Origin: a virus
Length of the DNA: 13,294 bases
Direction: 5' to 3' (one strand)
Virus genome (UHGV): UHGV-0121640
Position numbers and translations under genes: made by a program. Under the pieces are notes generated by a model. It saw nothing but the letters and a program-made list of their open reading frames with translations, did no database searches and had not been told where the DNA came from. Shown in pieces: positions 3,955 to 12,095 of this stretch (its first letter is position 1; every line of letters starts with the position of its first letter).

Positions 3955-4085
3955 TGATTTTTGACTGCCGATGTTACATTGAACCTGACATCTTGCGCCT
4001 TGAGGCATTTTCGGTTTATGCTTATCAGGCACCTCATTAAAACGGGTGCCGGGATTGAGACCCCGGATAATGCAAAAGGCGACAC

Positions 4086-4109
4086 AGACGCCAAAAGCGT
4101 CTTTTTTTT
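4086..4109 (+). terminator. Rho-independent terminator: stem AGACGC / GCGTCT, loop CAAAA, followed by T8
   Basis: Hairpin plus U-run read directly at 4086-4109. Confidence 0.6.
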
Positions 4110-4159
4110 GTGTCATGCCATCGCACAGCCATACGTAGCGTTTAGCTCAGAGATCAATG

Positions 4160-4238
4160 GTAGTGCTGGCTGGGCTGCCGAAAGGCAGGCCGGTTCCCTT
4201 TTGCGCCGGTAGTCTCAACCCAGTCAGTGCTACCGCCA
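4160..4238 (+). ncRNA. Candidate c4-like antisense RNA: about 77-nt three-way-junction (tRNA-like) structure; boundaries approximate
   Basis: 13-bp closing stem 4162-4174 / 4219-4231 (3 G-U), internal hairpins CTGCC-GAAA-GGCAG (4175-4188) and 4190-4209, single-stranded GTCTCAA (4212-4218) complementary to TTGAGAC at 4055-4061 and 4241-4253; GGCAGGCC complementary with one bulge to GGCTGCC just after the downstream SD. By analogy to P1 c4 (RNase P-processed antisense RNA). Confidence 0.3.
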
Positions 4239-4294
4239 TTGAGATTGAGACCTCACGCGGTAGCTCCTTAAATTAGCAAAAGGAGGCTGCCATT

Positions 4295-8712: not shown

Positions 8713-8729
8713 ATTGCTCTAATTATTTG
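8713..8729 (+). promoter_or_regulatory. C1 operator-like site ATTGCTCTAATTATTTG (14/17) directly downstream of cre
   Basis: Direct consensus match. Confidence 0.45.
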
Positions 8730-8745
8730 ATATTTATGGTGACGC

Positions 8746-9057
8746 ATGCGGAAGGATTTCAAAATAGACGGAAAATATGTGGTGCTGTCTGTAAGCTCTC
8801 AAATTCAGTCACCATCTGTCATTGTCACCGTAAAGTTGAGCGATAGGATGCCTGATATCGACTCGATATCTGTTGCGTTCCCCGTTAAAAGCATGCGGAG
8901 TGCTGAACATTTTGTGATGAATGCAACGGAGGAGGAAGCGCGGCGCGGGCTTACTAGAGTGATGGTGGAATTTGGCGAACTCCTGGGTAAGGTAAACAAT
9001 GCCCTTTCAATCAGTTCAGCAAGATCCAAAGCGTTAACAGCTTCCATGATGAAATAA
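8746..9057 (+). CDS. Hypothetical 103-aa protein downstream of cre (cra-like position); true start may be an internal Met
   Basis: ORF in track; weak SD at the 8746 start; operator immediately upstream. Confidence 0.35.
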   Translation: MRKDFKIDGKYVVLSVSSQIQSPSVIVTVKLSDRMPDIDSISVAFPVKSMRSAEHFVMNATEEEARRGLTRVMVEFGELLGKVNNALSISSARSKALTASMMK

Positions 9058-9062
9058 AAAAA

Positions 9063-9081
9063 GCCTGGCAAGGAGCCAGGC
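9063..9081 (-). terminator. Hairpin GCCTGGC-aagga-GCCAGGC preceded on the plus strand by an A-run, i.e. oriented as an intrinsic terminator for minus-strand transcription
   Basis: 7-bp perfect stem; the U-run exists only on the minus strand. Confidence 0.35.
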
Positions 9082-9188
9082 TGCACAAAAGAGCGGGTTT
9101 GTATTCCGCATCCAATCAATCAAGAAGGAGTATAGCACACAGGTACTGAAGTGAAAAAATGTGATTCGCGATTAACAAAATATCTACC

Positions 9189-9218
9189 ATTGCTCTAATT
9201 GATTGCTATAATTAAGCC
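9189..9218 (+). promoter_or_regulatory. Tandem overlapping C1 operator-like sites ATTGCTCTAATTGATTG (14/17) and ATTGCTATAATTAAGCC (12/17) upstream of ref
   Basis: Direct match; ref is a C1-repressed gene in P1 (recalled). Confidence 0.55.
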
Positions 9219-9272
9219 GCAGTTTTTGTCAACTACGAAGACGTTGCCATTACTTAACTCCTTGACATCATT

Positions 9273-9300
9273 GGCGGCCATTAGGCCGCCTTTTTTTTTT
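9273..9300 (+). terminator. Strong intrinsic terminator GGCGGCC-atta-GGCCGCC + T10, ending 5 nt before the ref ATG
   Basis: Hairpin and U-run read directly. Confidence 0.6.
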
Positions 9301-9305
9301 GCCAT

Positions 9306-9866
9306 ATGAAAACAATCGAACAAAAACTTGAACAGCGCCGCGAGTGGCAGAAGGCAGCCAGAGAACGAGCGATCGCTCGGCAACGGGAAAAGTTGGCTGA
9401 CCCCGCCTGGCGAGAATCGCAATATCAGAAAATGCGGGATTCTATCGTCCGCCGTATCGCTAAACAGAAAGAGCGCCCACCAGCCAGCAAAACGCGGAAA
9501 AGTGCGGTAAAGATAAAATCTCGTGGCTTGAAGGGGCGAACATCGACAGCGGAGGAACGGAGCATCGCCAATGCTCTTGGCGCTCTCCCCTGCATTGCCT
9601 GCTACATGCATGGAGTAATATCTGAAGAGGTATCTCTGCACCATATCTCCGGTCGTACCGCGCCGGGTTGTCACAAAAAGCAATTGCCCCTTTGTAGATG
9701 GCACCACCAGCATGCAGCACCGGCTGAAGTAAGAGAAAAATACCCCTGGCTGGTCCCTGTTCATGCCGATGGTGTGGTTGGAGGCAAGAAAGAATTCACC
9801 TTGCTGAACAAGTCAGAGATGGAGTTGCTGGCTGACGCCTATGAGATGGCAAACATCATGCACTAA
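9306..9866 (+). CDS. ref: Ref, recombination enhancement function (HNH-type endonuclease), 186 aa
   Basis: Translation MKTIEQKLEQRREWQKAARERAIARQREKL... with C-terminal Cys/His cluster (CIACYMHG...HHISGRT...CHKKQLPLCRWHHQH) typical of HNH; matches P1 Ref as recalled. Confidence 0.88.
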   Translation: MKTIEQKLEQRREWQKAARERAIARQREKLADPAWRESQYQKMRDSIVRRIAKQKERPPASKTRKSAVKIKSRGLKGRTSTAEERSIANALGALPCIACYMHGVISEEVSLHHISGRTAPGCHKKQLPLCRWHHQHAAPAEVREKYPWLVPVHADGVVGGKKEFTLLNKSEMELLADAYEMANIMH

Positions 9867-10753: not shown

Positions 10754-12058
10754 ATGAGCGAGTATATAGAAATTGCCTATGCAGCAGCTACACATAGGCT
10801 GTGCTTTCTTACAGGCACTGGATTTTCAAAGGCTGTTTCTGATGATAAAGCCCCAAGTTGGCAATCTTTATTGGAGCAACTGTGCGGTTTATTGAAGGAT
10901 GGTGACTCACTCAAAGAGGAATTATTTCCTGATGGAAAAGCAAAAGACCTTAGCCTTGAAGAGGCTGCTCAGGTTATTGCACTAAAATTTATACTTTCGG
11001 GGAAAAATATTTACCAGGAGATTGAGAAAATCATAGCCTCAATCGAACTTGATCCATCAATTGAATATATTCAAGACTTTTTCAAAGAAAACACATTTAA
11101 AGTAATTACGACAAATTATGACAAGTTAGCAGAAAAACTGGCTGGAGAGAATCGAACGTGTACAATCACCCCCGGCCTGCCAATTCCAAAATATAATTGT
11201 GAGGTTAAAGTCTACCATGTTCACGGCTCTATAGACTCCCCATCAGATATGGTTGTTACTAGCGAGGATTATTTCAGATTTATAAATGGTAATTCTTACT
11301 TTTCAAATAAACTAAGCACAGTTCTACATGAAAACACTATTGTTATTCTTGGCTATTCTCTAAGTGACGCGAACCTCAAGGCGATTATAAATGAATATAA
11401 GGTATTTTCACGGGACAACGTAATGTCCTCCAATATTTTCCTTATTTCCCGAGGGAAACTATTGCAACCTATTAAAGATTACTATTTTTCCTGCTTTGGG
11501 ATTAGGGTTATAGATAAAACAGAGGTGTCTGATTTCTTTAGAAAACTTAACAAGAAAATTCCAGAAGCAAAAAAAATAAAAGACAAATTGAGGCACTCAA
11601 TCAAATCGGTAATAAAAAACGGAAGAGAGTATAAAATAGAGTTCTTGAAGTTAGAGGATTCTTTTTATCATATCATTTCCTCCATTTCATCATCTGGATA
11701 TAGCTGGAATGATGAAAAGGTATTAAATGTTTTTTGTGATATAATAGATAAAAAAATAGATCTTACTAAAGAGTCTGGCGCATGGGAGCAGTATGAACAC
11801 CTGGCAAAATGGCTTATTTATTTCGGTAGTTTATTTGAAGTAAAAGGAACCAACTTTGAGAAAAAATACATACATGCGGTTGAACACTCAATGACTTATA
11901 TGAATAAACCTTACGAAACAGGCTACTCATGGCGAGCATATCTAGCCTGGAAAACAAAATGGCCTTCACTGACAGCATCTAACCGCTCTCTTATTAAGAG
12001 TAAGATGGAAGAAATCCCGCTACAACAGATTCACGATATTATATCTAAGTTTATATAG
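10754..12058 (+). CDS. SIR2-family (sirtuin-like, DHS-like NAD-binding fold) protein, 434 aa: N-terminal predicted NADase domain + unassigned C-terminal domain of about 180 aa; candidate defense effector
   Basis: Motif series FLTGTGFS, TTNYDKLAEK, YHVHGS, VILGYSLSDANL in the order and spacing seen in ThsA/DSR-type SIR2 domains; SD GGAG 7 nt before ATG; gene visibly AT-rich versus flanks. Confidence 0.8.
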   Translation: MSEYIEIAYAAATHRLCFLTGTGFSKAVSDDKAPSWQSLLEQLCGLLKDGDSLKEELFPDGKAKDLSLEEAAQVIALKFILSGKNIYQEIEKIIASIELDPSIEYIQDFFKENTFKVITTNYDKLAEKLAGENRTCTITPGLPIPKYNCEVKVYHVHGSIDSPSDMVVTSEDYFRFINGNSYFSNKLSTVLHENTIVILGYSLSDANLKAIINEYKVFSRDNVMSSNIFLISRGKLLQPIKDYYFSCFGIRVIDKTEVSDFFRKLNKKIPEAKKIKDKLRHSIKSVIKNGREYKIEFLKLEDSFYHIISSISSSGYSWNDEKVLNVFCDIIDKKIDLTKESGAWEQYEHLAKWLIYFGSLFEVKGTNFEKKYIHAVEHSMTYMNKPYETGYSWRAYLAWKTKWPSLTASNRSLIKSKMEEIPLQQIHDIISKFI

Positions 12059-12066
12059 TATATTTA

Positions 12067-12095
12067 TCTCCGGCCTAATCTCCCTAGGCCGGAGA
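12067..12095. terminator. Hairpin TCTCCGGCC-taatctcccta-GGCCGGAGA between convergent SIR2-like gene and lxc-like gene; possible bidirectional terminator
   Basis: 9-bp perfect stem read directly; downstream TTCTT on the plus strand. Confidence 0.45.

Follow-up and report, generated by a model that had tools for sequence, protein, structure and literature searches.

A conserved terminator hairpin between a C1-controlled promoter and the ref gene of P1-like phages

The leader of the ref gene in a P1-like phage contains a strong hairpin followed by a run of T, and the best explanation of this element, to which we assign a probability of about 0.7, is that it acts as a working Rho-independent terminator, ending both read-through from the upstream genes cre and c8 and most transcripts from the ref promoter P2ref. 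The analysis covers a stretch of 13,294 nt from virus genome UHGV-0121640, referred to here as the window. Its ref region is 99.4% identical to RCS47 and, across 9060-9420, 96.4% identical to P1, whose ref region (GenBank M23246/M27041; AF234172) is the same locus. In the P1 record, cre and then c8 lie upstream of ref, and the ref open reading frame of the window matches the Pfam family PF16786 (RecA_dep_nuc) with an E value of 1e-49. A 1988 paper had already put forward an attenuator for ref, its title naming "attenuator-antiterminator control" for P1 ref (Windle, Laufer and Hays, 1988, J Bacteriol 170:4881), so that the present result is a confirmation and not a discovery.

The hairpin and T-run in front of ref

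The elements that make up the end of the leader, together with the flanking genes, are the following:

8746-9057, plus strand: c8, the co-directional gene upstream (open reading frame list, P1 annotation)
9273-9290, plus strand: terminator stem-loop GGCGGCC-ATTA-GGCCGCC, with the 5' arm at 9273-9279, the loop at 9280-9283 and the 3' arm at 9284-9290 (direct read, terminator scan, fold, covariation across lineages)
9291-9300, plus strand: run of ten T, the U-tract of the terminator (direct read)
9301-9305, plus strand: spacer GCCAT, without a Shine-Dalgarno (SD) sequence (anti-SD scan)
9306-9866, plus strand: ref, coding for a RecA-dependent HNH nuclease of 186 aa (open reading frame list, Pfam match)

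An earlier sequence-only reading of this DNA had described a hairpin whose 10-T run ends 5 nt before the ref ATG, and a direct read bears this out. All seven stem pairs are G-C in the consensus terminator scan, the hairpin folded alone reaches -15.0 kcal/mol, and in a fold of the 82-nt leader each stem pair has a probability of at least 0.995. The seven pairs and the 4-nt loop fall within the dimensions of intrinsic terminators (stem of about 5-12 bp, loop of 3-8 nt), and the U-tract follows the stem directly at its 3' side and is uninterrupted. Furthermore, the hairpin lies on the same strand as, and downstream of, both the annotated P2ref and cre-c8, the promoters being annotation or consensus matches. 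As a minus-strand terminator the hairpin was rejected, AATGATG and no T-run following it on that strand.

The strength of the element was compared with chance in 2000 dinucleotide-preserving shuffles of the window, counting hairpins of at least seven perfect pairs, at least six of them G-C, that are directly followed by at least seven T. The window holds two of these, namely the ref-leader hairpin and one on the minus strand, read from 9082 to 9055, while 0 of the 2000 shuffles contained a hairpin and T-run of this class. This confirms that the terminator hairpin of the ref leader is real and beyond chance. An open reading frame of 189 aa on the opposite strand (9195-9764) was set aside as probably spurious; its frame cannot be conserved, because it crosses the T-run, which is variable.

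Promoters, the C1 operator and the flow of transcription into ref

In P1, ref is a lytic gene controlled by the repressor C1, a C1 site being reported to occlude "one of the ref promoters" (PMC4713147). After inactivation of C1.100 the level of ref RNA rises 73-fold, a rise that is lower and slightly later than those of ssb, dmt and kilA; in addition, the 5' region of ref is bound by H-NS, and over-expressed Ref is lethal (PMC4713147). The corresponding elements of the window are:

9184-9212, plus strand: P2ref, the C1-controlled sigma-70 promoter (mapped from features 1957-1985 of the P1 record), with the -35 hexamer CTACCA at 9184-9189, the -10 hexamer TATAAT at 9207-9212 and a predicted start at about 9219
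9189-9205, plus strand: Oref, the C1 repressor operator ATTGCTCTAATTGATTG (consensus search, P1 protein_bind feature)
9244-9271, plus strand: P1ref, a predicted internal promoter (promoter scan; "predicted sigma 70 promoter P1ref" in the P1 record), with TTGCCA at 9244-9249 as -35, TG at 9263-9264 and CATCAT at 9266-9271 as -10

The operator-controlled promoter that had been placed about 80 bp upstream of ref from the sequence alone is thereby found where it was said to be, with Oref at 9189-9205 and TATAAT at 9207-9212. Sites matching the C1 operator consensus occur seven times in the window, where 0.09 would be expected. From the predicted start of P2ref it is 54 nt to the hairpin and 87 nt to the ATG. 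At 9169-9175 the window has CGATTAA in place of the H-NS motif CGATAAA that is reported upstream of ref in P1. A further site resembling a C1 operator, ATTGCTCTAATTATTTG, with three mismatches, lies on the plus strand at 8713-8729, after the stop codon of cre and before the start of c8; in the part of the P1 record that was examined, its counterpart has no protein_bind feature.

P1ref, which the sequence-only reading overlooked, matches the promoter consensus at 9 of 12 positions and carries the TG in the promoter scan; the window shows no excess of 9/12 matches over shuffles (16, with 20.3 expected). Its start is predicted at about 9276-9279, and transcripts beginning at 9276 or 9277 retain a stem of at most 4 bp, with GCC between the stem and the U-run. 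Because this start lies inside the 5' arm of the hairpin, P1ref transcripts would bypass the terminator. This predicted promoter comes close to what that reading had itself named as a finding against it, a ref transcript starting downstream of the hairpin.

As a terminator, the hairpin would halt polymerase arriving from the co-directional cre-c8 unit as well as from P2ref, so that a minority of transcripts would enter ref and the level of the toxic nuclease would be kept low. Ref could then be supplied by read-through of the terminator once C1 is inactivated and possibly by the weak internal P1ref, whose transcripts, starting in the 5' arm, would form no hairpin; translation would be SD-independent, at an AUG placed 5 nt after the U10 tract in a weakly structured start region. 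Taken together, the terminator would be constitutive but leaky, insulating ref from cre-c8 and damping the output of P2ref. If P2ref contributes to the 73-fold rise, the block is a leaky one, and lytic replication or P1ref transcripts could be a partial source of the rise. The P1 transcriptome papers give no end-mapping for ref, and we infer the actual efficiency of termination at 9273-9300, as well as the use of P1ref, from the features described. Placing a promoter in front of a terminator that is always active seems wasteful and hints at regulation; in the leader tests made here, no regulated step was found at the ref-leader terminator.

Conservation of the leader and its upstream unit

Between P1 and the window, the hairpin, Oref, the P2ref -10 hexamer and both P1ref hexamers are identical. 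The P2ref -35 hexamer differs by one base (CTACCA here, CTATCA in P1), the T-run is T10 here and T8 in P1, and the leader reads TTAACT where P1 has TTCACT, and AAGCC where P1 has GAGCC. Among 82 P1-like loci collected from IMG/VR and GTDB, the P2ref TATAAT is kept throughout, and the stem is unchanged except for C to T changes at the 3' end of the 3' arm, which retain G.U pairs. The loop reads ATTA, ATCA or TAAA. The T-run has 8 T in 73 loci, 9 in four, 7 in three and 10 in two, the window thus being an outlier together with one other locus (L077).

The same order of operator and promoter, leader, terminator and ref occurs in three lineages of Ref, that of P1 and two further ones:

Cronobacter phage JK004 lineage (L004, L090, L091, L092): Ref 65% identical
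Pantoea alvi (L008): Ref 60% identical

In all three lineages a C1-type operator overlaps the -10 hexamer, which is TATAAT in P1 and JK004. The JK004 lineage has the operator ATTGCTCTAATA overlapping this hexamer, a leader of 41-45 nt, the hairpin GACGGTC-TTCG-GACCGTC with T8, and an ATG or GTG 10-13 nt further on. In Pantoea alvi, TTTGCTCTAATAAATTT is followed by GCCGCC-TCCG-GGCGGC and T7, and ref starts either at a likely ATG about 95 nt on or at an in-frame TTG that overlaps the T-run. In a hand-anchored alignment of 11 sequences 98.7% of the cells of the stem pair, with double changes in three of the seven pairs; the covariation score was reached by 0 of 500 shuffles, and slid registers drop to 17-70% paired. 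The terminator structure is thus maintained, with compensatory changes, across lineages.

No leader terminator was found in D6-like or other Ref lineages beyond those of P1, JK004 and Pantoea, and the ref gene of D6 has a clear SD (taagagg). Since the terminator is absent from these Refs, it travels with the C1-type operator and promoter and not with Ref as such. These comparative data agree with the core of the sequence-only reading, namely an intrinsic terminator in the ref leader below a C1-controlled promoter and no SD. A long palindrome, GTTAGAAAATCAATTTTGA(T/A)(T/A)TTCTAAC, stands before the D6-type ref genes (L172-L184, at about 1415-1445); it presumably serves another repressor as operator and replaces the C1 operator and terminator.

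The upstream part of the locus is also found without ref. In PLSDB, 52 plasmids that lack ref at this site keep cre, c8, the operator and promoter, the leader and the hairpin, the latter with a GAAA or GCAA loop and T6. Two nucleotides after T6 comes the stop codon of the antirepressor gene ant, present as a convergent copy, and the homology to the window stops within the T-run. These plasmids share one junction and may descend from a single rearrangement.

Several further observations concern rearrangements at this locus. A convergent copy of icd and ant (KilAC antirepressor) lies next to the leader terminator, and ref is absent, in the P1-like plasmids L002, L003 and L163 (at about 1640-1690) as well as in the 52 plasmids. 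The ref leader is also a break-point for mobile DNA (L165 at about 1607; L164 at about 1630): one plasmid carries the inverted repeat of a Tn3-family element (TnAs1), GGGGAGCCCGCAGAATTCGG, inserted after GTCAACTA, and another has an unrelated junction after GGCCATTACCTACT. Upstream of the icd/ant-like open reading frames of the window, two adjoining Rfam matches on the plus strand correspond to an isrK-like Hfq-binding RNA (4029-4107; 59 bits) and a C4 antisense RNA (4153-4240; 75 bits). After mat, an open reading frame of 434 aa with a SIR2_2 domain (PF13289, E 2e-23; 10754-12058, plus strand) occupies the place where P1 carries res/mod, with an 11-bp hairpin behind it at 12067-12095. The second-strongest terminator of the window, on the minus strand at 9055-9082, consists of AGCCTGGC-TCCTT-GCCAGGCT and T7 (-15.6 kcal/mol); it points leftward immediately beyond the end of c8, and there is no minus-strand gene that leads into it. 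A promoter-like minus-strand site, TTTTCA-17-TATACT with a TG, is located some 40 nt upstream of this terminator, at 9129-9157, and a minus-strand RNA of about 65 nt running from this site to the terminator is conceivable. In the ref-less plasmids the same terminator would be the first canonical one for the convergent ant operon.

The terminator scan found no other plus-strand intrinsic terminator between the c8 stop and 9273; the hairpin just after c8 carries its T-run on the opposite strand. A co-directional upstream gene, with the operator directly after it, is likewise present in JK004 and Pantoea, and in all three lineages the leader hairpin is the first plus-strand terminator behind that gene. 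Therefore, the leader hairpin probably also ends the cre-c8 unit, a role that the sequence-only reading overlooked. A stronger version of this idea takes the element to be mainly the 3' end of cre-c8 and a module boundary, with ref transcribed chiefly from P1ref and the P2ref transcripts as a by-product. Besides the co-directional genes and the lack of a further terminator after c8, it draws on the homology of the ref-less plasmids, which ends in the T-run, and on the P1ref hexamers and TG, which are retained in the divergent L047 allele and in these plasmids. On the other hand, an operator and promoter precede the hairpin in three lineages, ref RNA responds 73-fold to inactivation of C1 (PMC4713147), and the JK004 lineage has no counterpart of P1ref, so that read-through must supply ref there. 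We consider this stronger version possible, but on balance doubtful.

Two segments of the leader transcript were considered for a possible control of termination:

9222-9242, plus strand: weak leader hairpin GUUUUUGU-CAACU-ACGAAGAC (folds; not kept in other leader alleles)
9243-9249, plus strand: GUUGCCA, candidate antiterminator segment (fold of a transcript truncated before the 3' arm)

GUUGCCA is complementary to UGGCGGC (9272-9278), a stretch that takes in all but one of the seven 5'-arm bases. An RNA antiterminator could thus form before the 3' arm is made and, if stabilized by a lytic signal or factor, let polymerase pass; judged by its title, the 1988 paper presumably proposed this model. 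In the fold of a transcript cut before the 3' arm the 5' arm is indeed sequestered, and the duplex reaches -10.3 kcal/mol in the window (p of about 0.03 against shuffled leaders). Furthermore, all four leaders of the JK004 lineage contain a conserved ACUGUCA that matches their own arm, UGACGGU (p 0.002-0.07), the pairing being nominally significant in three of them and at p 0.07 in the fourth, and leader-arm pairings are weaker across lineages than within them. However, the pairing comprises 7 bp, two of them G.U, over a loop of 22 nt and competes with a terminator of -15 kcal/mol that shares the arm and is able to displace it; moreover, it is not significant in the P1-type alleles L047, L062 and L163 or in Pantoea. 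The weak leader hairpin and the pairing of GUUGCCA with the arm are not mutually exclusive, and there is neither a leader peptide to drive a switch nor an Rfam family match. With Rfam 15 nothing reached the gathering score in 9000-9400, the best match scoring 24 bits against a cut-off of 41; the sub-threshold matches, including the best one, span the terminator hairpin. The GUUGCCA pairing is suggestive, and a control of ref by it is rather unlikely.

The trp, his and pyrBI attenuators resemble the ref leader in having an intrinsic terminator between the promoter and the first codon and a possible competing upstream pairing. Unlike in these systems, no leader peptide or conserved small open reading frame and no sensing step were identified in the ref leader, and its competing pairing is weak and not kept in all alleles. 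The N/nut-tR1 system of lambda and the put system of HK022 likewise have a terminator on the way from an early promoter under repressor control to a lytic gene; unlike there, no conserved structured element of the nut or put type was found in the ref leader. To our knowledge, no antiterminator of P1 has been described.

Initiation of ref translation and the control of Ref

The ATG at 9306 is the sole usable start of ref, because an in-frame TAG precedes it at 9282-9284 and Ref residues are invariant from position 19 onward across four Ref lineages. Within 24 nt of this ATG there is no duplex with the anti-SD better than -2.5 kcal/mol, and none of the 82 P1-like loci has an SD in the spacer, which reads GCCAT, GACCAT or ACCTT. 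The claim that the spacer GCCAT alone separates the terminator from ref and leaves no room for an SD is thereby borne out. An SD concealed in the hairpin was rejected: the sole AGG is 20 nt away from the start codon, and no anti-SD duplex was found.

Other routes to initiation were also considered and rejected. A leader peptide finds no ATG or GTG in the P1-type leader, and a 9-codon ORF with an ATG start in the JK004 leader is lost in the closest relative, L090. Translational coupling through an ATGA overlap lacks a conserved frame, since the lengths of T-run and spacer vary: in the window the frame ending in the ATGA extends 98 nt upstream before it meets a stop and offers TTG starts only, and in the commonest T8 allele (55 of 82 loci) it extends 38 nt and has no start codon.

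The start region of ref is weakly structured, with an opening energy of 6.2 kcal/mol compared with 5.8-17.2 for the other genes of the window, and the AUG is flanked by U10, 5 nt upstream, and by an A/CA-rich stretch, with weak A-U pairing. In this respect ref resembles rnd, where a terminator-like hairpin and a U-run likewise stand directly before a poorly equipped start. The rnd leader is reportedly composed of a hairpin and U8. It has an SD and a UUG start, as against an AUG without an SD in ref. U-rich translational enhancers that act through S1 have been described for rnd and manY (PMC7769764), the one in the 5' UTR of E. coli rnd (RNase D) by Zhang and Deutscher (1992, as cited in PMC7769764). 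A U-rich single-stranded tract lies beside the ref start as it does in enhancers of this type, which makes U10 at 9291-9300 a candidate S1-binding element that may act in ref translation.

The hairpin and U-tract could on these grounds serve mainly translation or the stability of the mRNA, with S1 bringing the 30S subunit to the SD-less AUG and little termination in vivo. The position of U10, the low opening energy and the precedent of rnd and manY all fit such a role, but the hairpin and T-run are kept in the ref-less plasmids, with T6, and in Pantoea, while the compensatory changes in the stem favor a structural role of the hairpin itself. In Pantoea the likely start codon is some 95 nt away from the T-run, so that a link between U-tract and translation is not general. 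As the main function of the element, we regard this as improbable.

The C1-operator promoter, leader and terminator might instead form a conserved unit of their own, acting either as a repressor-controlled small RNA produced on induction or as a checkpoint that some lytic-phase antitermination activity of P1 would open. Three Ref lineages share the arrangement although their stems differ, and 52 ref-less plasmids retain it, which leaves room for such a unit; we give it a slim chance. That P2ref, leader and terminator make an independent small RNA of some 80 nt under C1 control, with a function of its own and ref merely downstream, is very improbable: the persistence of promoter, operator, leader and hairpin in the ref-less plasmids, the hairpin with U-tail that is the usual 3' module of small RNAs and a CUCC(U/C)UGAC motif that stands before the hairpin in both the P1 and the JK004 lineage speak for it, but the best target in a scan of the window (-22.5 kcal/mol) does not exceed the shuffled mean (-24.0 kcal/mol), no Rfam family matches, the common junction of the plasmids may go back to a single rearrangement, and little of the leader sequence is conserved from one lineage to another. 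A regulated antitermination and a leader RNA with its own function are both poorly supported possibilities, and a constitutive but leaky terminator is the reading that we prefer.

The suggestion of the sequence-only reading that ref is subject to attenuation-type control or unusual translation initiation agrees with the P1 ref proposal of 1988, as far as its title tells. The comparative evidence is a modest addition to that model and introduces no new mechanism; it adds that the terminator shows compensatory changes in three lineages and is absent from Refs under a different type of operator. Ref is a RecA-guided nuclease that sensitizes lysogens to ciprofloxacin and has been used as a programmable endonuclease. 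These uses, together with its lethality, make it of practical interest how the phage keeps Ref low, and the control region of ref combines four layers in this respect: the repressor, H-NS, the leader terminator and a start without an SD.
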